This document shows positions 1 through 59,830 of a stretch of DNA of 64,000 nucleotides, in pieces. The DNA comes from an uncultured Azospirillaceae bacterium (GTDB lineage Bacteria > Pseudomonadota > Alphaproteobacteria > RF32 > CAG-239). The position numbers and the translations under genes are program-made. The stretch lies in the NCBI GenBank assembly GCA_964410325.1, contig CAYPFN010000005.1, forward strand, positions 9,087 through 73,086, given 5' to 3'. The notes under the pieces are model-generated. The model had not been told where the DNA came from. It saw only the letters and a program-made list of their open reading frames with translations, and searched no databases. Every line of letters begins with the position of its first letter. The stretch's first letter is position 1.

Positions 1-2523
1 CTGCGTCAGTAATTTAACATATGGTGTTTCACCACAACCAGCGCAAGCTCCTGAATATTCAAACAAAGGCTGAATAAGCTGCGTTGTTTTCGGCAAGTTT
101 TTAACCACTTCCGTTCTTTTGACATACGGCAGCTTTTCAAAGAATTTCCAGTTTGCCTTCTGCGCCTCGAGCTGATTTTCGATATGATCCATATTAATGG
201 CTTTTCTTGACGCATCAGCCTTATTCTTTGCTGGGCAGACGGAAACGCAAATACCACAACCAGTGCAATCTTCTGGAGAAATCTGCAGAATGAATTTCTT
301 ACCAGCAAATTCTTTACCCTTATAATCTGATGATTTTAAAGTTGCCGGAGCACCCTGCAGCTCATCATTAGAAGCTACTTTCATACGGATAACGCCGTGC
401 GGACAAACCAAAGAACACTTGCCACACTGGATACAGGTGTCCGGATCCCAAACCGGAACTTCAGTAGCAATGCAACGTTTTTCATACTGCGTCGTGCCTG
501 TCGGCCAGGTGCCATCAACCACTTCGGCAAAAGCTGAAACCGGTAGCTGGTCACCACGATCGGCAATGATTTCACCGGTCAGTTTTTTAACAAATTCCGG
601 AGCATCGGCCGGAACAGGAGCCTGACGATGGAATTTGGAAGTAACACTTGCCGGATATTCCACTTTATGCAGATGTTCCAAAGAAGCATCAACTGCTTCA
701 AAATTTTTCTGCACGATAGCATCGCCTTTTTTGCTGTAAGTTTTCTTAATTGCCGCCTTAATTTGTGAAATTGCTTCATCTTTCGGCAGAATGTTTGAAA
801 TTGCAAAGAAACAAGTCTGCATAACCGTATTGATGCGTTGTCCCATGCCGGTTGCGCGGGCAACTTCAATAGCGTTAATCGTATAAAACTGCAGTTTCTT
901 GGCAATAATTTCTTCCTGAACTTCTATCGGCAGATGATCCCAGATTTCATTTTCTGCATATGGCGCATTCAGCAAAAACGTTGCCCCTGGTTTAGCAATT
1001 TTCAAAATATCGACTTTATTCATAAACGGAAATTGATGACAGGCCACAAAATCCGCCTTATTAATAAGATAAGCCGATTTAATCGGATTATCTGAAAAAC
1101 GCAGGTGTGAAGTTGTCATGGAACCAGATTTGCGAGAGTCATACACAAAATAGCCCTGACCATATTTGCCGGCATCTTCAGCGATAATCTTAATTGAGTT
1201 TTTATTGGCACCGACCGTACCGTCTGCACCCAAACCATAGAACACAGCGCGCACAACGTCTTTCGGCTCCGTATCAATTGCATCGTCAAACGGTAAAGAT
1301 GTTTTGCTAACATCATCCGTAATACCGACAGAAAATCCGTTAATCGGATTAGCAGACAGGCCATTGTCAAATACCGCTTTGACCATACCCGGCGTAAACT
1401 CTTTGGAAGACAAGCCGTAACGGCCACCGACAATCTTCGGCATTGAGCCGAGTTTGCCATTGGCATAAGCCTGGCTCAAAGTGGCAACAACATCCAGATA
1501 AAGTGGCTCGCCGGTAGAACCTGATTCTTTAGTGCGATCCAGAACCGAAACCACTTTAACACTTTTTGGCAATGCTTTTAAGAAAGATTCTTCCGGGAAA
1601 GGACGATACAGATGAACTTTCATCACGCCAAACTTGCCACCGTTGGCATTCAAATAAGCAATAGTTTCTTCAACCGTTTCAGCACCGGAACCCATAATCA
1701 CGATAACTTCTTCGGCATCTGTCGCACCGACATAATCAACCACATGATATTGACGACCGGTAATTTTGGCAAATTTATCCATTTCCTCGGCAACGATACC
1801 TTCAACCTTTTTATAATACGGGTTAGCAGCCTCCCGACCCTGGAAAAAGACATCCGGATTTTGCGCCGTACCGCGGATAACCGGTTTTTCAGGACGCAGT
1901 GCGTGTTTGGCATTGAAAGAATAATCAACGCCTTCAAGCATTGCCCGTAAATCATCGTCAGACAAAAGCTTAATTTTTTTGATTTCATGAGATGTTCTGA
2001 ACCCATCAAAGAAATGCATAAACGGCACACGCGAACGCAAAGTTGACGTTTGTGCAATAGCAGCCATATCATGAGCTTCCTGAACTGAGTTCGAACAAAG
2101 CATGGCAAAACCGGTCTGACGGCAGCCCATTACATCGGAATGGTCACCGAAGATTGATAAGGCATGATAAGCCAAAGAACGGGCAGCGACATGCATCACA
2201 AACGGCGACAGTTCACCAGCGATTTTATACATATTCGGAATCATCAACAGCAAACCCTGAGAAGCCGTAAAAGTAGTAGTCAAAGCACCAGCCTGGATAG
2301 AACCATGGCAGGCACCGGCAGCACCGGCTTCAGACTGCATTTCCTGAACTTCTGGCACAATGCCCCACAGATTTTTCTGTTTGGCTGCCGACCATGCATC
2401 AGCCCATTCGCCCATCGGTGAAGACGGGGTAATCGGATAAATGACACAGACCTCGTTCATGCGGTGGGCAACAGAAGCTGCGGCTTCGTTACCGTCCATC
2501 ATTTTCATTTTTACATCTGACAT
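1..2523 (-). CDS. nifJ: pyruvate:ferredoxin/flavodoxin oxidoreductase (PFOR, NifJ/YdbK type), N-terminal ~840 aa; the gene runs off the window start
   Basis: One uninterrupted minus-strand frame from ATG at 2523 (RBS AAGGATG) to position 1, absent from the ORF track because it has no stop in the window. Translation begins MSDVKMKMMDGNEAAASVAHRMNEVCVIYPITPSSPMGEWADAW. Two ferredoxin-type motifs (CIQCGKCSLVCP, CTGCGICVSVCP) and ...GACAGCGETPY lie near the edge. The small minus ORFs in the track are other frames of this gene. Confidence 0.85.
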   Translation of the reverse strand, partial: MSDVKMKMMDGNEAAASVAHRMNEVCVIYPITPSSPMGEWADAWSAAKQKNLWGIVPEVQEMQSEAGAAGACHGSIQAGALTTTFTASQGLLLMIPNMYKIAGELSPFVMHVAARSLAYHALSIFGDHSDVMGCRQTGFAMLCSNSVQEAHDMAAIAQTSTLRSRVPFMHFFDGFRTSHEIKKIKLLSDDDLRAMLEGVDYSFNAKHALRPEKPVIRGTAQNPDVFFQGREAANPYYKKVEGIVAEEMDKFAKITGRQYHVVDYVGATDAEEVIVIMGSGAETVEETIAYLNANGGKFGVMKVHLYRPFPEESFLKALPKSVKVVSVLDRTKESGSTGEPLYLDVVATLSQAYANGKLGSMPKIVGGRYGLSSKEFTPGMVKAVFDNGLSANPINGFSVGITDDVSKTSLPFDDAIDTEPKDVVRAVFYGLGADGTVGANKNSIKIIAEDAGKYGQGYFVYDSRKSGSMTTSHLRFSDNPIKSAYLINKADFVACHQFPFMNKVDILKIAKPGATFLLNAPYAENEIWDHLPIEVQEEIIAKKLQFYTINAIEVARATGMGQRINTVMQTCFFAISNILPKDEAISQIKAAIKKTYSKKGDAIVQKNFEAVDASLEHLHKVEYPASVTSKFHRQAPVPADAPEFVKKLTGEIIADRGDQLPVSAFAEVVDGTWPTGTTQYEKRCIATEVPVWDPDTCIQCGKCSLVCPHGVIRMKVASNDELQGAPATLKSSDYKGKEFAGKKFILQISPEDCTGCGICVSVCPAKNKADASRKAINMDHIENQLEAQKANWKFFEKLPYVKRTEVVKNLPKTTQLIQPLFEYSGACAGCGETPYVKLLTQ

Positions 2524-2782: not shown

Positions 2783-3319
2783 ATGAAGCTAAAAGAATAT
2801 TACCAAAACAGAAACAGTTTCTGTAACATCTTCACGGATGCAGAACTGAAACAAGACATTTCCAACTTACTTGGAATTTCCGTATTCGTTGAAAATCCGG
2901 CTTTAAAATCAATTAAAGAGAAAAAACAAATTCTAATCGAAAATCATGACAAAATCCTGGGATTTGCATACTATTTGCTAGACTATCAGGGCATTCATGA
3001 TCAAGTTTTTGAAAGTCAAATCGAATTGTTCCAAATATTTGCCGGAATGATTTTTCTGAAGAGAATTCCATTTGCAGACGCAGAACACCGTCTGCTGGAA
3101 ATCAGCCAGAAATATGAATTGGCAACTGTATATCCAGAAAAAGAAAATGTAGCCAATTTCATTCTTGGCAACATTGAAAAATTCAGCCAGGATGAATTAA
3201 AACAAATCTGCCACAAGATTGAAAAAGCTTCAGTCGTTGAGTTTCTGGGAGAAGAATCCGTGCAGATTCTATACAAAATTTGCCGTTCGAAAACCAGCTG
3301 GTTGAGCAAATTTTTCTAA
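2783..3319 (+). CDS. hypothetical cytoplasmic protein (178 aa), no recognisable domain
   Basis: Clean ORF, TTGACA-type promoter at ~2721, shared terminator downstream. Confidence 0.5.
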   Translation: MKLKEYYQNRNSFCNIFTDAELKQDISNLLGISVFVENPALKSIKEKKQILIENHDKILGFAYYLLDYQGIHDQVFESQIELFQIFAGMIFLKRIPFADAEHRLLEISQKYELATVYPEKENVANFILGNIEKFSQDELKQICHKIEKASVVEFLGEESVQILYKICRSKTSWLSKFF

Positions 3320-4922: not shown

Positions 4923-5969
4923 ATGTTTCTATTTTTTCAAGGGATTGAAATTCCCGTGCTTATTCGAGCCGGAGCGGCATTTTTTACGGCTTTGATTTTA
5001 TCTCTAGCTTTCGGCAACAGCGTCATATCTTTTTTGCGATGCCGCCAGCATCACGGCCAACCAATCCGCACGGATGGACCACAAAACCATTTAACTACCA
5101 AACAAGGCACGCCGACTATGGGCGGCTTGCTAATTTTGGCTGCGACAATAACCTCCATAGTTTTATTTGCCAACATCCGTTACCATTTTATTTGGGTCTG
5201 CCTTTTGGTTTTGCTGGCCTATGGTGCAACCGGATTTATTGACGACTATATCAAAGTCACCAAAGAAACACCTAACGCCTTAACGGCCAAAGCCAAGCTC
5301 TTTATTCAGTTTATAACCGCCGTTGTCGCCGTAACAATCATTACCGCTGCAACCCCGAATGCCTCGGATACAATTCTGTCCGTACCGTATTTTAAGACTG
5401 TTTTTAACCTTTCTTGGTTATACATTCCTTTTGCCGTCATTGTCATATCCGGCGCTTCAAACGGCGTAAACTTAAGTGACGGTTTGGACGGCTTGGCTGC
5501 CGGACTGCTTATCCTAGCTTTTTCGTTCTTTGCTGTTATTGCATTTATTGTCGGAACGCCACTGGCGAAAAACTTTTCTTTTATCTACATTCCGCGCAGT
5601 GATGAAATTTCCGTCGTTTGCGCCGCCGTTGTTGGCGCCTGTTTAGGCTTTTTACGGTTTAACGCTCCTAAAGCCAAAGTATTTATGGGAGATACTGGTT
5701 CTCTCGCTTTGGGCGCTTTGCTCGGCACAATCGCGGTAATCGTCAAACAAGAAATTTTGCTTGCCATTGCCGGTGGATTATTTGTTATTGAAACACTTTC
5801 CGTCATTATACAGGTTTTCTGGTACAAAAAAACCGGCAGGCGTTTTTTTAAAATGGCTCCCATTCATCACCACTTCGAACAACTCGGCTGGAAAGAAACA
5901 ACCGTAGTCGCCCGTTTTTGGCTAACAGGTTTCATTTTTGCTGTCATTGCTCTGGCTTCACTGATTTAA
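4923..5969 (+). CDS. mraY: phospho-N-acetylmuramoyl-pentapeptide transferase MraY
   Basis: 348 aa polytopic membrane protein with MraY motifs (PTMGG, DDYIKV, NGVNLSDGLDGLA). Confidence 0.95.
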   Translation: MFLFFQGIEIPVLIRAGAAFFTALILSLAFGNSVISFLRCRQHHGQPIRTDGPQNHLTTKQGTPTMGGLLILAATITSIVLFANIRYHFIWVCLLVLLAYGATGFIDDYIKVTKETPNALTAKAKLFIQFITAVVAVTIITAATPNASDTILSVPYFKTVFNLSWLYIPFAVIVISGASNGVNLSDGLDGLAAGLLILAFSFFAVIAFIVGTPLAKNFSFIYIPRSDEISVVCAAVVGACLGFLRFNAPKAKVFMGDTGSLALGALLGTIAVIVKQEILLAIAGGLFVIETLSVIIQVFWYKKTGRRFFKMAPIHHHFEQLGWKETTVVARFWLTGFIFAVIALASLI

Positions 5970-18347: not shown

Positions 18348-20423
18348 TTAAACATTAATTTCAATTACCACCACCGACCATGCCGGCACCATAATTGTTT
18401 TTCCCGGCTCCAGGGCCAAATCTTGCTCGATTTTTCCAGATGTATCCAAAACGAATTTCCATTTTTTTGTTCTTTTTAAAAGCGGAAGTTGCCAGGAAAC
18501 ATCTCGGTTTTCGGCATTAAATATTGTCATCAGCAGCCGACCTGGAACGTACGCTATATATGCCAAAGACCGGCGTCCGTCGGTATGCCAGTCGTCATCC
18601 GTAAATTCGGTTCCTCGTTCCGTATACCATGCCAAATCTTTAAACCCTCTTTTATTAAAAGATTTTCCGGTAAAAAAATACTCATTTTTAAAAACATTTA
18701 ATCGCCGGCGTAATTTAATCAAATTATGAACATAACGGGCAAAATTCCGATCAGCCATCGTAATAGCTTCCCACACAATCCAAGTAATAACATTATCCTG
18801 ACAATATGGATTGTTGTTGCCAAACTGCGTATTAACAAATTCATCACCAGCAAATATCAGTGGCGTTCCGAATGAAAGCAACAGGGTTGCCATCAAGGCT
18901 CTTGCCCGGCGTTGTCTATTTTGATTAACATTAGAATCTTCCGTCAACCCTTCAAGGCCGGAATTCCAGCTCCAGTTGGCATCGCTCCCATCACGATTGT
19001 TCTCACCATTAACTTCATTATGTTTCTGGTTATACGCAACCAAATCACTTAAACAAAAACCATCATGCGACGTAATAAAATTAACGCTACTCCACAAGTT
19101 TCGATTATTGTGACCAAAAATATCACTTGATCCGGCAATTCGGCTGGCAAATTCGCTCACTTGGCGTTCATCGCCACGCCAAAAGCGCCTAACGATATCG
19201 CGAAAACGATCATTCCATTCAGCCCATCCCGGCGGATAAGCGCCGATCTGATACCCACCAACGCCGATATCCCAAGGCTCGGCAATCATTTTAACCTGTC
19301 TTAACACTTCATCTTGGCGGGCGGCCATTAAAAAACCGCTATGATTATTAAAAACAGTGTCTACTCGGCTCAGGCTTGAGGCTAAATCCAAACGAAAACC
19401 GTCAACATGCATTTTTTCAACCCAATATCTCAAAGAGTCCATCACCAGCGTCAAAACATTCGGATTCTGCAGGTTAAACGACGCTCCGCAACCTGTGCTG
19501 TCATAATAAAAACGCTTATTATTTTTATCCAACGTATAATAACTCTCATTATCAATCCCGCGATAACAAAGTGTCGGCCCAAGCTGATTTCCTTCACCAG
19601 TATGGTTATAAACCACATCCATAATAACCTCCAGTCCATGGCTGTGCAAGGTCTTAACCATAGCCTTAAACTCATTAATATCGCCATTAACCAAATATGC
19701 CGGTTCCGGCGCAAAAAAGGCCAGCGTTTCATACCCCCAGTAATTAAGTCTGTCCTTACCGATTTTTTCTCTGAAAAAAGCCTGAGAGGGCAAAAGTTCA
19801 ACCGCCGTTATTCCTAGCCATTTCAAATAATTGACAATACTTTTGGAAGCTAATCCCGAAAATTTGCCACGGCATTTATCTTCAACCCGTGGATGTAGCA
19901 ATGTATATCCTTTAGGGTGCGTTTCATAAATAACGCTTTCGCAGAAAGAACGTCGCGGATGTTCATCGTCCTCCCAATCAAACCCCTCATCATCAACCAC
20001 TACGGCCTTGGGAACATAGGGCGCACTATCAAGTTCCGAAAAAGATAAATCTTTTTCTGGACTATCCAAATCATAACCAAAAATCGCCTTATGCCAGATT
20101 AATTTTCCCGCCAATTGTTTAGCGTAAGGATCCAGCAGCAGTTTATGATGATTAAACCTTTTGCCGCTCAAAGGCTCATAAGGCCCGTATACCCGGTAAC
20201 CATACAACTGTCCGGGCTCTAGTCCCTGAACATAAGTATGCCATATACCATGGTCGTTTTCCATAATTGCAATCCGCAACTGTTCGGTAACGCCACTCTT
20301 ATCAAACAAACACAGTTCCACTTTTTCGGCATTAGCCGAAAACAAAGCAAAATTAACCCCATTACCGTCATAAGTGGCACCCAGCGGATAAGTCTTTCCT
20401 GGGCGGATTTTAACTGACTGCAT
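18348..20423 (-). CDS. glgX: glycogen debranching enzyme GlgX (GH13)
   Basis: 691 aa, GH13 motifs (VIMDVVYNHT, GFRLDLAS, EPWD). Confidence 0.9.
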   Translation of the reverse strand: MQSVKIRPGKTYPLGATYDGNGVNFALFSANAEKVELCLFDKSGVTEQLRIAIMENDHGIWHTYVQGLEPGQLYGYRVYGPYEPLSGKRFNHHKLLLDPYAKQLAGKLIWHKAIFGYDLDSPEKDLSFSELDSAPYVPKAVVVDDEGFDWEDDEHPRRSFCESVIYETHPKGYTLLHPRVEDKCRGKFSGLASKSIVNYLKWLGITAVELLPSQAFFREKIGKDRLNYWGYETLAFFAPEPAYLVNGDINEFKAMVKTLHSHGLEVIMDVVYNHTGEGNQLGPTLCYRGIDNESYYTLDKNNKRFYYDSTGCGASFNLQNPNVLTLVMDSLRYWVEKMHVDGFRLDLASSLSRVDTVFNNHSGFLMAARQDEVLRQVKMIAEPWDIGVGGYQIGAYPPGWAEWNDRFRDIVRRFWRGDERQVSEFASRIAGSSDIFGHNNRNLWSSVNFITSHDGFCLSDLVAYNQKHNEVNGENNRDGSDANWSWNSGLEGLTEDSNVNQNRQRRARALMATLLLSFGTPLIFAGDEFVNTQFGNNNPYCQDNVITWIVWEAITMADRNFARYVHNLIKLRRRLNVFKNEYFFTGKSFNKRGFKDLAWYTERGTEFTDDDWHTDGRRSLAYIAYVPGRLLMTIFNAENRDVSWQLPLLKRTKKWKFVLDTSGKIEQDLALEPGKTIMVPAWSVVVIEINV

Positions 20424-20493
20424 TCAATCTCCTTTTATCTATAAACTTTTTAGAATAATATATGTAACACAAAAAGATTAATTTTTTTCTATT

Positions 20494-22692
20494 TTATCTG
20501 ATTGGTTTAATAACAATGGTTGACAACGGCGGCAAAACAACTTCAATTGAATAAGGTTTCATATTCCATCCTATCCATTGCGTCTCAAGCAGACCTTCGT
20601 TTTTAACACCGCTTCCCCAATAGTTTTTATCATCACTGTTAAAAATTTCCTGATAACGGCAAGCTTCATTGACACCCACCCGGAAATTATGGCGCACAAC
20701 CGGCGTAAAATTACAGATTATAATCAGATAATCATCCGGGTTATGACCGCGGCGGATATAAGAAATAACGCTATCGTCACAATCGGCATGATCAATCCAT
20801 TCAAACCCGCGATAATCAAAATCTATTTCATATAACGGTGCATTACCCTTATACATTAAGTTCAAATCCCGCACACAATTCTGCATGCCTTTATACATCG
20901 GATACTGAAGTAAATGCCAACGCAAACTCTCACTGGAATTCCATTCCCAATCCTGCCCAAACTCACAACCCATAAATAAAAGATTTTTACCTGGATGCGT
21001 CCACATAAAGCCATAATAAGCGCGCAAATTTGCAAATTTTTGCCATTCGTCGCCCGGCATTTTACCCAACATTGACCCTTTACCGTGCACAACCTCATCA
21101 TGCGAAATCGGCAGAATGAAATTTTCATTAAAGGCATATAAAAGTCCAAAAGTCAAAAGCCCATGATGATATTTGCGGTGCACTGGCTCATGACTGATAT
21201 AACGTAGCGTATCATTCATCCAGCCCATATTCCATTTATAGCCGAAACCCAAGCCACCCATGGAAGTCGGTCGGGACACCATCGGCCATGCCGTCGATTC
21301 TTCGGCACAGGTCAGTACGCCATGATTTTCCCCGTATACCAATTCATTCATTTTTCTTAAAAACGAAATAGCCTCCAGATTTTCATTGCCGCCATATTGA
21401 TTCGGTATCCACTCACCCGGCTCTCGGGAATAATCCAAATACAGCATGGAAGCCACCGCATCAACTCGCAAACCGTCGATATGATATTCTTTCATCCAAT
21501 ACAAGGCGCTGGCACACAAAATATTACAAACTTCCGTACGTCCGTAATTATAAATTTTAGTGCCCCAATCCTTATGTTCACCTTTGCGCGGGTCAGCATG
21601 TTCATACAAATGCGTTCCGTCAAATTCTACCAGTCCGTGCCCATCCTTTGGAAAATGCGCCGGAACCCAATCCATGATGACACCGATATTTGCCTGATGA
21701 AATCTATCAATCATATAACGGAAATCATCTGGCGTACCAAAACGCGATGTAGGTGCAAACAATCCCGTAACTTGGTATCCCCACGATGCATCCAGCGGAT
21801 GTTCACACAAAGGTAAAAACTCTACATGCGTGAATCCCATATTTACGACATACGGCACCAAATAATCGGCAAATTCGCGATACGTCAAATACTCTTCACC
21901 ATGCTCGCCTTTACGCCGCCATGAACCCAAATGAACTTCATAAATAGACATCGGTTTATCAAAACTGTTATAAGATTCCCGATATACCATCCACTCTCTG
22001 TCATTCCAATTATAATGATTTAAATCATAGACAATGGAAGCTGTTTTCGGACGTTTTTCAGCATAAAAAGCTACCGGATCAGATTTACACAAAATATAAT
22101 TCTGCTGAGTTTTCACTTCATATTTATAAACCTCGCCTTCACCGATTCCCGGAATAAAGATATCCCAAATACCACAGGTCGGATGTTTGCGCATCACATC
22201 AACTCGACCGTCCCAGGCATTAAAATTTCCCACTACGGAAACGCGTTTGGCATTCGGCGCCCACACGGCAAAACCGACACCTTTAACGCCATCCATTTCC
22301 ATGACATGCGCGCCAAGTTTTTTATAGATATCATGGTGATTCCCTTCGGCAAAAAGATAAATGTCTATATCGCCCAAAGTCGGCTGAAAACGATAAGTGT
22401 CTTCCTTAACGTAAACATTTCCCGAATCATTTGTGATTCGAAAACGATATTTGAAATAATCCAGCGGGCCAAAATTGATTTGATAAAACCCCCGCTCATC
22501 AAGACAGGTCATCATACCTAAAGAATTATTATTTTCATCCAAAAGTTCCACGGCTCTGGCATGAGGTTGGTAAGTGCGGATAAACACATTCTTGCTACCC
22601 TTATCACGATGGATTCCCAAAACCGCAAAAACATTGCCATGATCGCCATCAATTACCGCATTCATTTCTTCTTTAGATAATAGATTTTCCAT
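20494..22692 (-). CDS. glgB: 1,4-alpha-glucan branching enzyme GlgB
   Basis: GH13 branching-enzyme motifs. Preferred start is ATG 22692 with GGAGG RBS; the track start is 22728. Confidence 0.95.
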
Positions 22693-36546: not shown

Positions 36547-37680
36547 TCATCGCAATTTCTTTTCCTGTAAACGCTGTGTCAGTCTGGCGGCAATCAACAT
36601 TAACCCCAACAGCAGAAAACCAGAAACTATCAGACCGATACCAGTTTGCATCAAACCTCCCCAAAAATCCATATATATCAGAAAAATCCGCAATGCCGCC
36701 AAGGCAAAAACCACATTAAGCAGGCGGCGGGAACGGTTATGATAAGCATAAATGCCTGTTAAGGCCAATAAGGCGAATGATAACAGAAAAGATAACGGCA
36801 ACAAGCTACCGAAAAATATAATCAGCATCAGAAAGGGAATATAATTTGGCCGTTTTCTGAGTTTTTCTATATAAAAAGACAACATCGTCATAGCGGCGGC
36901 AATCAGAACCAAACAACCCCCCAAAGCCCCTTCTATGCGATAAGGAACAAAAGACGTAACCAAGAAGTTTCTTTCAAAATCCATAAAGAAAATTGCTAAA
37001 ATGACATCAAAAACCAGCCAATATCTCAATGCCTTAACAAATCCCATGACATAATGCGGAAAGAACAGACGCAGTAGCTGATACAGCAAAAACCATACAA
37101 AAAGCCACAGAACCCCTACAGAATATTGCCAGCTTTCCGTAAACAAACGCAAAAACAGAGACAAACTCTGGCTTTGCTCAACATAATCTAACAAAGAAAT
37201 CCATAAAACCAGCAACACGACAAACGGCAAAACAATTTTTCGGGAAAAAAATGTCAGCGGAAATACCAAAATCGACCACAACAAAAAAGCCGACAAGCCA
37301 TCCAGTGGTAATTGATAAACCTGCACAATCAACCCGATGGAAGCCAACAACAGAATGGCAAATAATATACTCAGGCTTTCAAACCACAGATTCTTTCCCT
37401 GATTATAAAACATCCATGTTGCACCGCCAGCAGCCGCCAGCAAAATAAAATCACTAATCAGTTTAATAACCGACGGAATAGCGGTCCAATTGGCGGCAAT
37501 AATGGAAACAATGCCTAAGCCGATACAAACCAGTGCCAATGCCATAAATCCGTATAACAAATAAGGCTTGGCATGACGTTTTTCATAAGCAATAATCGCC
37601 CGTCCCTGTTGATAGGAAATCAACCCGATTTTCTGCCACCGTTTAATTTTTTTTGCCAAATTCATTAAAATTCTCCCCAA
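36547..37680 (-). CDS. polytopic membrane protein (DUF2157/DUF4401-like)
   Basis: 377 aa, ~9 TM helices, N-terminus KIKRWQKIGLISYQQGRAII. Confidence 0.45.
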   Translation of the reverse strand: MGRILMNLAKKIKRWQKIGLISYQQGRAIIAYEKRHAKPYLLYGFMALALVCIGLGIVSIIAANWTAIPSVIKLISDFILLAAAGGATWMFYNQGKNLWFESLSILFAILLLASIGLIVQVYQLPLDGLSAFLLWSILVFPLTFFSRKIVLPFVVLLVLWISLLDYVEQSQSLSLFLRLFTESWQYSVGVLWLFVWFLLYQLLRLFFPHYVMGFVKALRYWLVFDVILAIFFMDFERNFLVTSFVPYRIEGALGGCLVLIAAAMTMLSFYIEKLRKRPNYIPFLMLIIFFGSLLPLSFLLSFALLALTGIYAYHNRSRRLLNVVFALAALRIFLIYMDFWGGLMQTGIGLIVSGFLLLGLMLIAARLTQRLQEKKLR

Positions 37681-37981: not shown

Positions 37982-38008
37982 TTGCAAAAAAAAAAAACGG
38001 TTTATAAT
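37982..38008 (+). promoter_or_regulatory. sigma70-like promoter TTGCAA-(15 nt incl. A12 tract)-TATAAT upstream of cysteine-rich secreted protein gene
   Basis: TTGCAA 37982-37987, A12 37986-37997, TATAAT 38003-38008. Confidence 0.45.
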
Positions 38009-38196
38009 AAATCGTATAAGCCCTTTACGGAGGTTGTTTTATGGCTTGTTTGTTAATTTATACCCTTTTTCTTCCTGCCGCCTGCTTCCTCAAGGCGTTT
38101 CTTCCTCACATGCCTATATATTATATCGTCTCCCAGAAAGCTCCGCGGCAGGACCTTCCGTTTCTATTCTTCGTTCGTTATTTAGGAGTTTATATT

Positions 38197-39009
38197 ATGT
38201 TTATTAAATTTTCTTTCTTTGGCGTTTTAACGCTTTTATCCACTTCTTCTGCTTTGGCTCTGACTTGTGTCAACGACTACGGCGGTACTTCCTCTTGCGC
38301 TAGCAACACTACCGCCGCAGGAGATTGTGAAACTTTAGGTTACTCAACTTCCGATGTCGACAACTGCGAGCATTATCTCTATTGCCCCTTTGATACTTCC
38401 TACAAAAGGTGTGTTACTCAATCTGAAACATCTGAAACAGTAGAAGACTGTTCTGATTATACTTTAGAATCCTGCCCGACTGGCGCTATTTGTGATATCT
38501 GTTATCAAACTTCCGAATCAGGAGGCATTGCCTATTTTAAAAGATATTACAAAATTACCTCCTGTGAGGAGGGATATACAGAAACTACCAATCTCACTAC
38601 TGGCGCCATAACCTGTACAGAGAATGGGTTTAATCTGGGTGATCTTATAGAGGATGACATGAATTCTGAAGAAGAGTCTGATCCATGTGATGACAGGACA
38701 ACATATCCAATCAAATGTACAAACGGTAGCGAAACAACATGCTTCGAAGAAGACCCCTGTAAGGGTGTTAGTGGATGTGAATGGCACTGTGATACCATTG
38801 CCGGCAACGATAGCAGTAGTAGCGATAGCAGTAGCAGTGGTGGCGGTGGTAGTGCATGCGATGACGAATGCTCGCTAGGTTTGAACACATGTGACTGCTT
38901 ACTATGTAAGGATCCAAAGTATTGCGAAACTGATGAGGCGAAGCGGGCTTGCTGTGGTGAACTTGAAGAACGAGAAGACAGTATAAATAAAGAGGCAGAA
39001 AAACTTTAA
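38197..39009 (+). CDS. secreted cysteine-rich protein with Ser/Gly-rich linker
   Basis: ATG 38197 after AGGAG, signal peptide MFIKFSFFGVLTLLSTSSALA, ~36 Cys, SSSSDSSSSGGGGS run. Confidence 0.65.
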   Translation: MFIKFSFFGVLTLLSTSSALALTCVNDYGGTSSCASNTTAAGDCETLGYSTSDVDNCEHYLYCPFDTSYKRCVTQSETSETVEDCSDYTLESCPTGAICDICYQTSESGGIAYFKRYYKITSCEEGYTETTNLTTGAITCTENGFNLGDLIEDDMNSEEESDPCDDRTTYPIKCTNGSETTCFEEDPCKGVSGCEWHCDTIAGNDSSSSDSSSSGGGGSACDDECSLGLNTCDCLLCKDPKYCETDEAKRACCGELEEREDSINKEAEKL

Positions 39010-42712: not shown

Positions 42713-43369
42713 CTATTCCTCCATGATATAACCGATTTTGTTAATAGTCCGCACCACATCTTTGCCCAATTTTTTACGCAGATGATGCACATGCACCTCC
42801 ACCGCATTGCTTTGCACATCATCATCCCATGAATAAAGTTTCTCTTCAATAACCGCTTTGGAAAGCACGCGATTTTTATTAAGCAGCAACAACTCCAACA
42901 ACGCCACTTCCCGCGGCGCCAGTTCCACTGAAACACCGTTTTTTGTAACCTGTTTAGTTGCCGGATTAAATTTAATATCCTTAAAACATATCTCTGCCAC
43001 GGCATAACCGCCCTGCCGGCGTATCAGCGCATTCAGGCGGGCAATAACTTCCTTGAGCGAAAACGGCTTGGCCAGATAATCATCAGCACCTTTGTTTAAG
43101 CCTAAAATCCGGCTATCAACATCGCCCCGTGCCGTCAAAATCAGCACCGGCTCAATTTTACCTTTATCACGCCAGTGCTTTAAAATTGTCAGACCGTCGA
43201 TTTCGGGCAGCCCCAAATCAAGAATAACAACGGCGTAAGGCGCTTGGAAAAGCGCCTCTTCACCATCGGCCCCGTTATCAAACCAGTCAACATTGAATCC
43301 GTTCTTTTCAAGTCCGGTTTTAATGCCATCGCCGATTAAATTATCATCCTCAATCAGAAGCACACGCAT
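42713..43369 (-). CDS. OmpR-family response regulator, QseB-like
   Basis: MRVLLIEDDNLIGDG...VILDLGLP. Confidence 0.9.
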   Translation of the reverse strand: MRVLLIEDDNLIGDGIKTGLEKNGFNVDWFDNGADGEEALFQAPYAVVILDLGLPEIDGLTILKHWRDKGKIEPVLILTARGDVDSRILGLNKGADDYLAKPFSLKEVIARLNALIRRQGGYAVAEICFKDIKFNPATKQVTKNGVSVELAPREVALLELLLLNKNRVLSKAVIEEKLYSWDDDVQSNAVEVHVHHLRKKLGKDVVRTINKIGYIMEE

Positions 43370-45951: not shown

Positions 45952-46951
45952 TTATTTTGCCAACCGTTTATGCAAAATCTGCAGCAATTTAATTTTCTGC
46001 ATACGGAAAGCCCATAACGCCAAAATTTTTACCGGCCCCAACAGCCAAAACTTAAAATGCTTATCTTTCACAATCGGCTGCAGATAATCGTTAACCAGCG
46101 CATACAGCGCTCGTTCCGCCATTGGCTCGTACCGCTCAAGCACTTCTCCGACAAACATACCATAAGCATATTTGGTTGCCGTTTTATCAAGCAATGTTTG
46201 CACGAAAGGAAATCTTTGTCCCAAACCGACAATTTCCGCAAACAAATCCTGATATTCCGCAATCCGCTTTTCTGAAAGTTTTTGTAACGTCTGCGATGTT
46301 TCAAGTTGGCGATACGCCAAAAGTTCCTGCGTACAGACAACGGCCTTTCGACTGTTAAGCAAAACCTCAATATTAAACAACATATCGTTGATTGCCGGGA
46401 GCTTCAAAGAAAAGCGGATGTTTTTCAAAAGCTCTGCTTTATAAAGCTTCTGCCACATCAAGCTACCGATTTTTTTCTTGTGGCAAAATTTATCGATAAA
46501 CGGTCGTTCTGTTACAAATTTATATGTCGGCAACAGCTCATAATACTCCTTAAAGTTGTACCCCCCCCCGGCCGACAAATTTACAGTAGCTACAGCAGCT
46601 GATATCAGCATCCGTTTCCCGTAGATTATGATATAAAATTTCCAAATACTGCGGATGATAAATATCATCATGATCGCAAAAAGCAATATATTGCCCTTTC
46701 GCTATATCCAAAGCATAATTGCGGCTGGCGCTGCCACCTTGGTTTTCTTGCCGAAAAACTTTAAAACGCGCGTCATTGCCGGCAAATTTTTCCAATATTT
46801 CCTGCGACTTATCCGTTGAACCGTCATTAACGCAGATAACCTCAAAATCCGTAAAAGTCTGTTGTTGGATAGCAACTAAGGTTTCAGCCAAAAAATCTTG
46901 AGCATTATACACTGGAACAATTACCGAAATGCAAACCGTTTTATCCGACAT
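45952..46951 (-). pseudogene. GT2-family glycosyltransferase interrupted by a frameshift at a G9 tract (phase-variable candidate; in frame with 8 or 11 G)
   Basis: N-terminal ORF (MSDKTVCISVIVPVYN...DGSTD...) stops 12 codons after the tract. The C-terminal ORF 45952..46686 continues in the -1 frame. ATG 46951 overlaps the GT4 stop (TGATATG). Confidence 0.75.
46561..46569. repeat. C9 (G9 on coding strand) homopolymer inside GT2 gene
   Basis: Read directly: ...gttgta ccccccccc ggccgac... Confidence 0.95.
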
Positions 46952-48014: not shown

Positions 48015-48927
48015 TTAAGCCACCTTCAGCGTTCCATCTAAAAATTTTTCCAAAAACGTTCCGGCGACATTTTTATTTTTATCATATTTATAACTTAATT
48101 TATGAATCTTGGTTTCTTGTTGCAGCTTATTCCACAACCTGTCATCATACGGCGTAAAAAAGTTATGCTCTAAACCATAACAAATATCATCATAATAAAC
48201 AGGTACTTTATCCCAAAGCGCTTTACTTACCGCATCCTGCTCAATCATCAAATCAAAAAACAGATGATACAAAAAATAATTCAGCATATGGTTTTCATGG
48301 CGCCAATATTCAAACATCAGCCGCCGCATATTGCTTATTAGCTGATCTCCTCTTTGGGCTTTCAAAAACCAATTGTTAGATTTAAGATGTGAGCGGGAAT
48401 GAAAAGCAAAAAAATCCGCGCTGGTAATATCTGCTGGCAGAGCCGCCGTAAGAAAAACCGTCGCGTCAATCCAAATGCCACCGTTCTGGCTTAAAAGCGC
48501 CAGCCTGAGCAAATCGGAAAACTCCGTGTTCGTAATATAGCCTTTTCGCCATTTTTCATAAATATATTCTGGAATATCCGCGTATTGGGAAATATTTTCG
48601 TTATCAATAACTGTTAAGGTATACCCCCCCCCGGGTATTATCGCGTATACTTTCCAAACATTTCTTCACCACTGCCGGCGCTTTATCTTCTCCCTGTAGC
48701 CAACAGAGCCATATCCGATCGCCACCGCACTTCGCCACTGGCATTTCCATATTATTGCGCAAAGCATACAAATAACGCTGGAGATATTTCTTTTCCGCCA
48801 CGGTCGTCCATGCCTTAAGCTGCTTTTTGCGTTCCTTTTTATCGGCATAAAGCAATGCCACCGCTAATCTGAAAAATGTTTTCTTCACCCATACATACCA
48901 ATACGCAACCTTTTGCATCTCTGTCAT
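48015..48927 (-). pseudogene. DXD-motif glycosyltransferase (Caps_synth/Gly_transf_sug-like) interrupted by a frameshift at a G9 tract (phase-variable candidate)
   Basis: N-terminal ORF (start ATG 48927) ends ...DNTRGGVYLNSY* after the tract. With 8 G it reads through into ORF 48015..48512 (...GGYTLTVIDNENISQYADIPEYIYEKWRKGYITNTEFSDLLRLALLSQNGGIWIDATVF...). Confidence 0.75.
48624..48632. repeat. C9 (G9 on coding strand) homopolymer inside first glycosyltransferase of the operon
   Basis: Read directly: ...ggtata ccccccccc gggtatt... Confidence 0.95.
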
Positions 48928-49100
48928 CCTTTTTTGATAAGGGCTCAATTTATGATTTATGTATGATTTATAGAGAGGTTATTTCCACAAAATTGTTTAA
49001 TAAAGCCAATCATTAAAAATCTTTGCTAAATTATTTGATAAGAATTTATATTTCAATTCTGCTTTAATAATCTAAAAGGATTTATAGTGTCATACGCTAA

Positions 49101-49766
49101 TCATATTTGAGCGTTGATAATAATAAAAATTTTATACCAAACCGGACTACTTAAAACAATATGTTTTCCCAATTTTCCCCAACTATCATAAAGCCACACA
49201 CCGTTAAAAAAACAATAAACGTTACGTGCGAAACCCCGAACAGTCGGGCAATTCGCACCTTGAGAACTTTTTGTTCCTGCATTTGGTAAATTCATTCCCG
49301 CCCCAGATTTTTTTATTGATGATTTTTGTTCTTTTAATCCAGCCAAGCGTTTTGCCTTCGGCTTTAAGGCGGGCCAAAGCCTCTTTGGTGCACTACTAAA
49401 TAAGATTGCGCTCAATTTCGTCCGACAAGCCGAAAACCCAAGCCAAACTTTACTTCGAATACCCGTTCCCAGCCTGTAGTTATCTTTAATCGTCCAGACC
49501 TGCGTTTCCTTTTGCCTGCAGATATTCAACTGCAAAAGATTGCCCCCAATCCTCGAGAGCGACGGACAAAGCAGAACATCCACCTTTTTCAATTCCTTAA
49601 GAAGCTTGCCCAACTTTCGTTCTTCAAAGTTCTTCGCACCGCTGATAACCTCATACACCCAGCCGTCAATCAGCAACCCATTATACTCTGAAAAAGCATT
49701 GATTTCAAATTATTAATTTTCCAGTGTCTGCTTATCGGTGCTTACTCGTATATATCCATAAATCAT
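49101..49766 (-). pseudogene. small serine recombinase (invertase/resolvase family) pseudogene
   Basis: ATG 49766 gives MIYGYIRVSTDKQTLEN then TAA. The rest continues in another frame (…ERKLGKLLKELKK…LSRIGGNLL…YRLG…), paralogous to 52804..53394. Confidence 0.7.
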
Positions 49767-49887
49767 CTGTCTTCCCCTTATTCAGATATTAAAAAAATCA
49801 AGCTTAATCTCCTCGCACCAACTTGTTGTTTTTAATCTGATATTAAGGAAAACATCATAAAATAATTAAAACTATTGGAGAAAAATC

Positions 49888-50607
49888 ATGAAAAAACTGA
49901 TAATTTACATTTTTTCTGCCATGATTTTAATCAGCGGCGTCAACGCTCAAAGCAATAGCCTGGATGCTGTCCTTTCCGACATTCCGCAAAATCCAGAAAG
50001 TGCTTTGGTCTTTATCCACGGACTTGGTCAAGACGGCATCGCCATGCAAAAAATTGCCGCAAACTTCAAAGATCGGCTTCCAGATACTGCCCTCTTCTAT
50101 CCGACGGCACCAGACAAGGCACCACGTCAAGGCTATCAATGGTTTGTTATTCCAGCCTTTGGGGCTAAAATGGCAGATATTGATATTTATGAAGAAATGT
50201 TGGATGATGCCGTTTCAAATGTTGATGTTTTGCATGAGCTGATTGACAATATTCACAACGAAATGGCTATCCCTTATGAAAACATCCATGTCGCTGGTTT
50301 TTCGCAAGGCGGTTTAATGACCGTTTTAACGGCCTTGACTTATCCGCACCAGCTCGGACGCTCCGTTTCGTTTTCCGGCGTACCGCTTATTCTTACGGAA
50401 GATTTTGACACAGACATTTTGGTTTCCGAACCGGAAATTTTATTAATCCAAGGCGATAACGACAGCATTATTCCGCCAGACAGCCTGAAATTGACTCAAG
50501 AAGCTTTAGAAAGTTTAGGCATCATACCGCAAACGGTCATAATCAACCGCATGCGCCACGAAATTTCCCCCACCGCGCAGCAAAAGATGCTGGAATTTTT
50601 GCAATAA
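49888..50607 (+). CDS. secreted phospholipase/carboxylesterase-family alpha/beta hydrolase
   Basis: Signal peptide, FIHGLGQDG, GFSQGG nucleophile elbow. Confidence 0.8.
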   Translation: MKKLIIYIFSAMILISGVNAQSNSLDAVLSDIPQNPESALVFIHGLGQDGIAMQKIAANFKDRLPDTALFYPTAPDKAPRQGYQWFVIPAFGAKMADIDIYEEMLDDAVSNVDVLHELIDNIHNEMAIPYENIHVAGFSQGGLMTVLTALTYPHQLGRSVSFSGVPLILTEDFDTDILVSEPEILLIQGDNDSIIPPDSLKLTQEALESLGIIPQTVIINRMRHEISPTAQQKMLEFLQ

Positions 50608-50906
50608 CTTGATGTTATGATATTTTTCAAGATTCCACGCCACCTTATCATTGAAACGCTGTCGGGTTACATAATCCAGACTGGGCTGTCTATTTGGAAA
50701 AGAACGGTAAACAGAAACTTTATTTTGTACCTGAAACCTGAACTCCAAAGGCTCTGATTTTATTTTATGGTTTGCAACCAGAAGAAGCCCTGAAGCTTCA
50801 TTGCGGATATAAACATTTAGGGCTCTTGATAATATAATAATTAAACGATATAAAATTTCCCAAAGATATACTCTAAGGTAAGCTAACTTTCTCATCGTAT
50901 TTATCC

Positions 50907-51890
50907 TTAACCTTTTTTAGAGTAAGATAGAATTGGCAATATACCCAACAGATAAATTTTCACTTTATCTTTCCTTTTTTTGATTTTTATCAGTGGAATA
51001 CAATGAAATAATTTTACGCAATACATAACTTTAGGTGTTTTTGATATATTTAAAATTTCATTCAAAATCAGTTCTAATTGTAATTCATGAAAAAATGGAG
51101 TTGTTTTTGCATAATTCCAATATAAATTTTCACCTAAAACATCTTTTTTTACCCACGGACGAATACCATTTTTTCCCGTATAATGTAAAATAAAACATTG
51201 TTTTGATGTTTGTATAAAATTTTTTAAATCCAAGTATAACGGTGTCAAATCTACCACAAAGTTATAGCAATCTGGTAAAATATCGTATTTTTTATTGAAT
51301 ACAACATTAAGTATATCTTGATCAGGCATTGATAATTTTTGTTTCATTTCTAACGTTTTTTTTATTAAAACATCCATGACATTATTATTTCGCCAGAAAT
51401 CACAATCTATCAATAACAGTCCACTATTAAAATAAAGATGAGAAGCATCTATTTCTAAATTTTTCTTATATTTTTTATACACATTTATGTTATATTTTTC
51501 ATCTAAATAAGGAACGGCACCTAATCCATTATCTATATTTATGTTAAAAATTTCTAAAATATCACCACACACAATCATATCTGAATCAATGTATAATGCT
51601 TTTTTTAATTCGGGTTTTAATTGAGGAATTAAATATCGAGAATACATGTTCAGTGAAAAATGTTCTAAATTTGGAAATTGTTCAAATATAGACATTGGTA
51701 TTTCAATAAATTCAATTGTATGGAGAGTTTTGGTTAGCATCTGTTCTAGCTTGTTTTTAGAAATGCTGCTAATACCACCATCTAATATGTAAAAATTTAT
51801 ATTGCTTTTTGTATTAGATATAATTGAAGCTATCGTTACGGTGGCATATTTAATGTATTGTTCATCTGAAGCTAAAAAAACAGGTATCAT
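50907..51890 (-). CDS. GT8-family glycosyltransferase (LPS alpha-1,3-galactosyl/glucosyltransferase-like, RfaJ/LgtC type)
   Basis: 327 aa, IPVFLASDEQYIKYATVTIASI, DSDMIV DXD motif; the most AT-rich gene in the window. Confidence 0.85.
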   Translation of the reverse strand: MIPVFLASDEQYIKYATVTIASIISNTKSNINFYILDGGISSISKNKLEQMLTKTLHTIEFIEIPMSIFEQFPNLEHFSLNMYSRYLIPQLKPELKKALYIDSDMIVCGDILEIFNINIDNGLGAVPYLDEKYNINVYKKYKKNLEIDASHLYFNSGLLLIDCDFWRNNNVMDVLIKKTLEMKQKLSMPDQDILNVVFNKKYDILPDCYNFVVDLTPLYLDLKNFIQTSKQCFILHYTGKNGIRPWVKKDVLGENLYWNYAKTTPFFHELQLELILNEILNISKTPKVMYCVKLFHCIPLIKIKKRKDKVKIYLLGILPILSYSKKG

Positions 51891-52422
51891 CTCATTAATC
51901 CATTTCTCATTTCAATTTTAAATTTAATAGAAAAATTCCATAGTTGTAGAATGTACTTGGTATATATCTGCTCATTCAAAACTATTTTCATACTTTTAAG
52001 TCTTATTCCTAAGAAATCCCAACGATTATTCCAAAAAGTAAATTCCATAAAATCAACGTTTGTGCATAATCGAACGTTTATGCATAAAGTTATTAAGACA
52101 TAACCAATTATATCAGTGAAAGCCTTTGTTTTCTTAGTGTTTAAATAAAAAATTTATCTTGTAATTAAAAATAATTTATGTAAGATGAAATACATAAAAT
52201 AAACGTTCCAATTTGATTAATTACGCGACAATATACAATCATATAGTCTTAAATGAATAAGAGATAAGGTGTAATTACCCAGAAGACATAATTGCCATAA
52301 AAAAGGAAAAAATATGGCAAAAGAAAATTCATTGGTAGCAATACCCCCAATAGATATGTTGCAAAACGCACTTATTTTTCTCAAAACAACTTGGATTTTT
52401 TAAAGAAAATGAAAAAAAGTTC

Positions 52423-52803: not shown

Positions 52804-53394
52804 ATGATATATGGATATATAAGAGTCAGCACTGACCATCAAAACATTGCAAACCAACATCACGAAATTGAAATTTTTTCTCAAAAGCAAAATCTTATAA
52901 TCGATAAATGGATTGAGGAAATTATTTCTTCAAGAAAGCCTTTACAAGAAAGAAAACTTGGAAAACTCTTAAAAAAATTAAAAAAAGGAGATATTCTCAT
53001 TGCAACAGAGCTTTCTAGATTAGGACGTAATCTACTAGAAGTGATGGGAATATTACAAAAATGTCTAGAAAAAGATTGTCAGATTTGGACTTTGAAAGAA
53101 AATTATCGATTAGGGGCAGATATCCAATCTAAAGTTTTAGCTTTTGCTTTCAGTTTAGCAAGTGAAATTGAGAGACAATTAATTTCTGAACGAACCAAAT
53201 TATCTTTGCAAAGGCTAAAAGATGAAGGCAAACACCTTGGTAGACCATATGGTTCATCTTACCAAAAATTACAAAAACAACATGATAGAATAAAAAAGTT
53301 AACTGAAAAAGGTTTATCTAAAGCTGAAATTTCCAGAAGTTTAAATTGTTCTTGGTTAACGATTCATCGCTATATCCAAAGAAATTTCAGTTAA
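52804..53394 (+). CDS. small serine recombinase (DNA invertase/resolvase family, Hin/Gin size)
   Basis: 196 aa, YIRVSTDHQ catalytic-serine motif, LSRLGRN, C-terminal HTH. Confidence 0.85.
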   Translation: MIYGYIRVSTDHQNIANQHHEIEIFSQKQNLIIDKWIEEIISSRKPLQERKLGKLLKKLKKGDILIATELSRLGRNLLEVMGILQKCLEKDCQIWTLKENYRLGADIQSKVLAFAFSLASEIERQLISERTKLSLQRLKDEGKHLGRPYGSSYQKLQKQHDRIKKLTEKGLSKAEISRSLNCSWLTIHRYIQRNFS

Positions 53395-59670: not shown

Positions 59671-59830
59671 TATAAGAAACCCTGTTATTCAAATCTCATA
59701 ATACAATGCAATGAAGCTATTTTTTTTTCAAGCAGATAATAAAGTTATACAGCACTAAACATATTTTATAAGTGTTTACAAAAAGTTACCTTTAACAATA
59801 AAAAATATATATAAAGATAAAAAAAAGACT

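Follow-up and report, generated by a model that had tools for sequence, protein, structure and literature searches.

The locus considered here raises the question of whether a glycosyltransferase gene that is broken into two reading frames at a run of nine guanines is a gene resting in the OFF state of a slippage switch, a decaying pseudogene, or an intact gene misrepresented by sequencing. The gene lies in a 64-kb stretch of DNA, hereafter the window, which is Gram-negative chromosomal DNA encoding FtsA/FtsZ, GlgB/GlgX/MalQ, RecJ, LysRS, TrmFO and FadL; relatives of its LysRS with 83-96% identity are abundant in metagenome assemblies. An initial annotation had placed the interruption in the leading gene of an operon of three glycosyltransferase genes, and profile matches agree with this placement. 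The operon comprises the following features:

48015..48927, minus strand: gene A, a retaining GT-A glycosyltransferase of the Caps_synth (PF05704)/GT32-like type, interrupted by tract A; stop codon at 48015..48017
48624..48632, minus (coding) strand: poly-G tract A, read as G9 in the coding direction and as C9 on the plus strand, part of Arg-Gly-Gly codons
46953..48011, minus strand: gene B, an intact GT4 glycosyltransferase identified by profile match
45952..46951, minus strand: gene C, a GT2 glycosyltransferase interrupted by the twin tract; 332 aa at G8
46561..46569, minus strand: the twin tract (tract C), G9 on the coding strand, in the third gene of the operon; ON at G8/G11

The initial annotation had described tract A as the second of two identical G9 runs about 2 kb apart, located precisely at a frame junction, and had proposed that the same loss of one G would mend both interrupted genes. 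These claims are borne out: C9 at 48624..48632 and its twin at 46561..46569 are separated by 2,063 bp, and in-silico shortening to G8 restores both gene A and gene C. Tract A is the exact junction of two minus-strand frames of gene A. The first runs from 48927 (or 48918) to 48604 and has the C-terminus ...TRGGVYLNSY*, as had been predicted for the G9 product, and the second is the frame of the ORF 48015..48512. When the tract was edited in silico from G7 to G14, the full-length product was toggled by the gain or loss of a single G. At G8, gene A is continuous into the downstream ORF and encodes 303 aa from MTEMQ, matching the approximately 303 aa given earlier, or 300 aa from MQKVAY; at G11 it is again continuous, with 304 aa and 301 aa from the same two starts. 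The MQKVAY start (48918) is the one chosen by the gene caller in L003, a Logan contig from a related strain. With G9, a stop is reached 7 codons past the tract, and with G7 or G10 a stop is reached 3 codons past it, such that the ON lengths are G8/G11, the OFF lengths are G7/G9/G10, and both OFF frames terminate early. An OFF gene A leaves roughly 590 nt of RNA untranslated, which might bring about transcriptional polarity. Gene B has its own Shine-Dalgarno-like site (AAGGTGG, 48027..48021) within the end of gene A, and it should therefore be translatable while gene A is OFF.

The repaired (G8) gene A protein matches PF05704 with 254.5 bits (E = 1.6e-75; curated cut-off 24.5 bits) over profile positions 12-277 of 278; PF04488, the 'DXD' sugar-binding region, is matched less strongly. 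The earlier description of the product as a DXD-motif glycosyltransferase is loose in one detail. The putative DXD site reads Asp154-Ala-Thr156, which is no strict DXD, and the stretch that contains it, WIDAT, is invariant in 17 homologues. An AlphaFold2 model of the protein (pLDDT 91.3, pTM 0.88) was matched by Foldseek to Och1, YeGT, SetA and glycogenin with probabilities of ~1.0 and low TM-scores (0.3-0.45), and the modelled fold resembles those of retaining GT-A glycosyltransferases, including Och1 (GT32), toxin-type glycosyltransferases and glycogenin. In this model, tract A encodes loop 97-102, between helix 85-96 and strand 103-107, which would place it in a surface loop of the enzyme. 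The site is variable in an alignment with 16 homologues, the others being one residue shorter and lacking Gly-Gly. The G9 product of ~104 aa would comprise N-terminal helices, one beta-strand and one helix, and given the position of the loop it would therefore lack the whole catalytic core, while the additional Gly present at G11 should be tolerated in the surface loop. The repaired protein keeps 57 of 57 family-invariant residues, including those encoded beyond the tract, and no second lesion is present across ~300 codons. The annotation of gene A as a capsular polysaccharide synthesis protein (Caps_synth), together with its GT4 and GT2 neighbours, suggests that its product may act on a surface structure.

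The initial annotation had also held that the tracts are unusual for this genome, and this is upheld by the distribution of G/C runs in the 64-kb window, which contains 11 runs of length 5, two of length 6, none of length 7 or 8, and two of length 9; the two G9 tracts are thus the sole G/C runs longer than 6. In dinucleotide-preserving shuffles, 0.20 C9/G9 matches were expected, and at least two occurred in 6 of 100 shuffles, so base composition taken alone is only suggestive. Both G9 runs nevertheless share a single 3-kb operon, where they lie on the coding strand at frame junctions. GGGGGG encodes none of the 75 Gly-Gly dipeptides in the 48 other ORFs, and the probability of CGG GGG GGG given Arg-Gly-Gly is 2.6e-3 from codon usage. 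Across 185 kb of related genomes, G/C runs of at least 7 are present solely at orthologous tracts of the GT2 gene. Placement by operon, strand and junction, codon choice, and rarity in the clade thus strengthen the case beyond composition. A search with TRF recovered no further noteworthy simple-sequence repeats. The longest A/T homopolymers in the window are both intergenic: an A12 run at 37986..37997, between divergent genes at 36547..37680 (minus) and 38041..39009 (plus), and a T9 run at 59720..59728, upstream of tRNA-Asp. These two runs could affect promoter spacing.

We then compared tract length across the available assemblies, which form a very small sample of one NCBI record and a handful of SRA runs; the strain comparison draws on Logan contigs from a few runs with consecutive accessions (SRR7039256 to SRR7039263), presumably belonging to one study. 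Tract A is G9 in three of three covering assemblies (the window, L003 and L009), which represent two haplotypes: L009 (SRR7039263, Logan) is 100% identical to the window, and L003 (SRR7039256, Logan) is a distinct strain with 99.6% identity and 41 differences in 9.8 kb. Exact-sequence probes for the gene A products of G5, G6, G7, G8, G10, G11, G12 and G14 found none, no ON allele of gene A was recovered among 15 billion proteins, and a protein search centred on the ON junction returned two OFF fragments only. A scan of the genome collection with the repaired protein recovered only a 54% relative (L001), which implies that the species of the window is missing from the species representatives, and scans of JGI metagenomes with the flanks of tract A around a variable gap, and with a degenerate twin-tract pattern, each gave 0 matches.

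For gene C, exact-sequence probes for G6-G14 matched only the G8 form and the G9 fragments. The exact 332-aa G8 (ON) product is present in the protein collection (P0125) and is encoded on L007, a third haplotype with 3 SNPs relative to L003 in 2.9 kb and 5 relative to the window. The twin tract is accordingly G8 in L007 (SRR7039261) and G9 in the window, L003 and L005. In sister species (~72% DNA identity), the GT2 orthologue carries an in-frame tract whose position is conserved; it reads G8 in L011 and C-G7 in L012. The combinatorial phase variation proposed in the initial annotation is therefore supported in one of its parts, as length variation is observed for the twin tract (G8 in L007 versus G9), and tract A is seen at G9 only. 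The Logan contig L005 (SRR7039257) begins at the first G of the twin tract, its positions 1..9 corresponding to window positions 46569..46561; this start is ambiguous, as it could reflect a within-sample mixture of lengths or, equally, low coverage or sequencing trouble at poly-G. The two tracts also share the context CC-GGGGGGGGG-TA (48618..48640 and 46555..46575), encoding Arg-Gly-Gly-Tyr when ON, which may be a coincidence or may reflect common origin or a sequence preference.

The three closest orthologues of gene A (72-73% protein identity, syntenic) have no tract and read AGA GGC AAT or AAA GGT AAA at this site, which makes tract A a recent acquisition of this lineage that adds one codon in a permissive loop. 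The out-of-frame arrangement is not conserved for either gene: gene A orthologues are in frame without a tract, and gene C orthologues are in frame with G8 or C-G7.

The surroundings of the operon were also compared among relatives, in which the gene order is hydrolase, resolvase, the glycosyltransferase operon where present, and flavodoxin. L011 and L012 carry the three-gene operon, L010 has an altered version of it, and L016 lacks it. In this last contig, from a sister species with a 96% identical LysRS, the hydrolase and resolvase genes are followed directly by flavodoxin (19793..21476). Since the operon is missing in L016, it is an accessory insertion adjoining the resolvase gene. Two further features lie upstream of gene A:

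49101..49676, minus strand: small serine recombinase (resolvase) remnant, directly upstream of gene A
50515..50895, minus strand: ORF, putative Caps_synth stub, which begins MRKLAYLRVYLWEILYRL and is similar to Caps_synth homologues at their N-termini, among them P0016 with MRKLAYFRVYLLKILYRL

The recombinase remnant lacks ~32 N-terminal residues, the stretch in which serine recombinases carry their catalytic serine; it also has a 4-residue deletion and a diverged C-terminal half. Its orthologue is intact in L012 and L016, and it is a 55% paralogue of an intact resolvase at 52804..53394. The ORF at 50515..50895 seems to be what is left of a second Caps_synth gene, cut short at the start of the convergent hydrolase gene. 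Decay of the resolvase remnant and the Caps_synth stub indicates that gene loss occurs in this region. We also considered an invertible promoter directly upstream of gene A, for which the best inverted repeat is 28 nt long with 71% identity (48937-48964 / 49754-49781); this repeat was rejected as evidence because it has no counterpart in L012. A promoter and terminator scan of 48.5-52.6 kb gave promoter-like sites that were not enriched over shuffles.

Poly-G switching of glycosyltransferase genes is a well-established means of evading phage and immunity in Campylobacter, Neisseria, Haemophilus and Helicobacter. In Neisseria, the poly-G or poly-C tracts of lgtA, lgtC, lgtD and lgtG are experimentally demonstrated switches of LOS glycosyltransferases. 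The present locus resembles that system in having several homopolymer tracts within one glycosyltransferase operon, with the prospect of combinatorial glycoforms and truncation by frameshift, but differs in enzyme families and host and in that switching is inferred here. The futA/futB fucosyltransferases of Helicobacter pylori likewise have a coding homopolymer, poly-C, that toggles the frame of a glycosyltransferase and changes the surface glycan; these genes also use translational frameshifting and heptad repeats, neither of which is seen here.

The closest parallels are in the LOS, capsule and flagellar glycan loci of Campylobacter jejuni. Like tract A in gene A, the tract of cj1139c (wlaN) is an intragenic coding-strand poly-G in a glycosyltransferase gene that is ON at G8 and OFF at G9, and cj1139 switches at 2-4e-4 per division (PMC3401435). 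Poly-G tracts in C. jejuni have a modal length of 9, lie on the coding strand and are weakly conserved between strains; mutations at G8 are mostly insertions and those at G11 mostly deletions, and the modal length of nine has been ascribed to these mutational patterns (PMC3401435). Further likenesses are the clustering of lengths at 9, the scarcity of G7/G8 elsewhere, a low-GC genome and several tracts per glycan locus (PMC3401435). The host here is nonetheless an alphaproteobacterium rather than a pathogen of the Campylobacterota, the enzyme is Caps_synth/GT32-like, the tracts number two in 64 kb, and switching was measured in C. jejuni whereas it is inferred here. By its sequence-level features tract A can be placed in the poly-G contingency class, observed length variation being a property of the twin tract alone. 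A full-text literature search returned no relevant report of poly-G phase variation in Alphaproteobacteria.

We consider it reasonably probable that tract A is a slipped-strand poly-G contingency switch that is currently OFF, and this is the explanation we prefer. Under this explanation, slipped-strand mispairing at the homopolymer during replication would add or remove one G. A tract of G8 or G11 would restore the frame of gene A and yield an active enzyme of ~300 aa, with one extra Gly at G11, and at G9, the state in the window, translation of gene A would end 7 codons past the tract. Tract A would thereby switch the first gene of an accessory glycan operon (Caps_synth/GT32-like, GT4 and GT2), gene B would still be translated when gene A is OFF, and tract A in combination with the twin tract could generate up to four glycan states. 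The switch reading is consistent with the frame logic, the predicted loop position, the lack of a second lesion, the 57 retained invariant residues, the codon choice and the polymorphic twin. On this reading, tract A would switch reversibly at a useful rate, the two tracts together would give combinatorial variation, the ON enzyme of gene A would modify a surface glycan, and phage or host immunity may select for switching. Evidence against a switch comes from the observation of tract A at G9 only, the decay of neighbouring genes and the weak shuffle test (6/100).

The same observations bear on the possibility that gene A is a fixed pseudogene, disabled when slippage added one G and now decaying, with the tract a mutational accident, which we hold to be unlikely. 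It would account for a G9 tract in both haplotypes and all three assemblies and for the lack of a gene A ON allele in the probes and the junction search; it is also in keeping with the decaying neighbours, namely the resolvase remnant at 49101..49676 and the Caps_synth stub from 50895 downward, and with an operon that is dispensable, being absent in the sister species L016. A decaying gene A would, however, have to have escaped any second lesion in ~300 codons while keeping all of its family-invariant residues, and a run of 8-9 G would have to have been built de novo, against codon usage, from an ancestor resembling AGA GGC AAT. Moreover, the twin tract of the same operon demonstrably toggles (G8/G9). 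The uniform G9 state itself loses force as an argument for fixation in view of C. jejuni, where mutational patterns, and not selection for particular switching rates, are held to account for the modal length of nine (PMC3401435); such a mutational bias to nine provides a neutral explanation for both tracts being at G9 in the population consensus. As a G9 tract is still reversible by slippage, the OFF state would therefore be no dead end.

The initial annotation had regarded a homopolymer artefact, with a true length of G8 and an intact gene A, as the main alternative to phase variation. Several observations could be read in this way, including the repair of genes A and C alike by one -1 correction, the fragmentary source contigs, which suggest low coverage, and the start of L005 at the twin tract, which would mark a difficulty of assembly there. 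G9 is repeated, however, in assemblies of two other runs, one of them a strain with 41 differences in 9.8 kb, and G8 is called at the twin tract by the same Logan pipeline (SRR7039261) as well as in an ENA assembly (L011), so data of this kind do tell G8 from G9. Coding-region A/T runs of at least 7 also leave their reading frames unbroken, and the housekeeping genes give full-length profile matches. These independent G9 calls, together with the G8 calls elsewhere, largely exclude sequencing or assembly error, and we judge an artefact to be improbable. We give still less credence, to the point of considering it very improbable, to an explanation in which G9 is decoded anyway through RNA polymerase slippage or a +1 ribosomal slip on GGG-GGG-G, with gene A expressed at a low level rather than OFF. 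The sequence would permit this, as tRNA-Gly could re-pair perfectly in the +1 frame and the nascent RNA could do so on its template, and G9 is the state of tract A in all samples. The orthologues of gene A are in frame without a tract, however, and gene C is in frame at G8 in its orthologues and in one haplotype, which indicates that the in-frame form is the ancestral working form; nothing in the data requires such a decoding mechanism.

If tract A is indeed a slipped-strand switch, the poly-G strategy would extend beyond the classic pathogens to an uncultured alphaproteobacterium known from metagenomes, with one tract conserved across species and the other newly evolved. It would also follow that frameshifted 'pseudogenes' at G/C runs in MAGs should be regarded as genes that may be OFF, not as errors.

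A different type of variation was detected upstream of the operon, where two features lie close together:

52072..52208: invertible segment of 137 bp with a 10-bp inverted repeat at either end (52199..52208 and 52072..52081)
52804..53394: intact small serine recombinase containing YIRVST, with a resolvase profile match

The inverted repeats read GAACGTTTAT at 52208..52199 on the minus strand and ATAAACGTTC at 52081..52072. The segment lies between tRNA-Glu together with the recombinase gene on one side and a glycosyltransferase gene on the other, and its orientation in the window is the reverse of that in L013 (5714..5849), a strain with 99.3% identity; both orientations within one strain were not seen. 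An adjacent recombinase, terminal inverted repeats and both orientations, in this case from different strains, are the features by which serine-invertase switches are recognised. Inside the segment, an extended -10 element (TGATATAAT, 52115..52107, minus strand) faces the GT8 gene in the window and faces away from the glycosyltransferase gene in L013. A two-hexamer promoter scan did not call this extended -10 site, and the segment is a candidate invertible promoter on the basis of the extended -10 element only. In Hin/Gin-type serine-invertase switches and gut 'invertons', a recombinase gene lies beside a segment flanked by inverted repeats. The present arrangement is similar in its small serine recombinase gene, its short segment found in both orientations and its position upstream of a surface-glycan gene, but differs in that the repeats are just 10 bp, the recombinase lies outside the segment and the orientations come from different strains.

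The genes next to the segment also differ between these near-identical strains, the cassette at 50918..52071 in the window being replaced by a different one at 5850..6879 in L013. The window encodes a GT8 glycosyltransferase (50907..51890, ~32% GC), and L013 encodes an unrelated 314-aa GT2. The GT8 cassette is 92% identical to positions 3173..4391 of L025, an unrelated contig, where it lies beside RgpF and GT2 genes, and the homology begins at the duplicated AAACGTTGATT site, which suggests a site-associated horizontal exchange of the cassette. L025 also has a complete Caps_synth gene next after the GT8 cassette. Positions 52051..52087, where the invertible segment has its right end, contain an 18-bp tandem duplication (ATGCAYAAACGTTSR twice), corresponding to two adjacent copies of a putative recombination site; no further copy of this motif is present in the window.

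The invertible segment and the cassette exchange suggest that several mechanisms of variation are stacked on one glycan locus. A broader interpretation, which we offer tentatively as possible but somewhat doubtful, is that the region forms a layered module for combinatorial glycan variation in a lineage without a described one. Such a module would combine two poly-G switches, an ancient one shared across species and one newly arisen in this species, with a recombinase-associated invertible promoter whose site bounds horizontally exchanged glycosyltransferase cassettes, and tract A would represent the de novo birth of a contingency locus.

Apart from the glycan locus, a cluster of 9 differences in 27 bp separates the window from L003 at 42872..42898, within a response-regulator gene (42713..43369). 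The cluster overlaps a 9-bp repeat, CAACAACGC (42887..42906), and it may represent a recombination patch or variation in repeat register.
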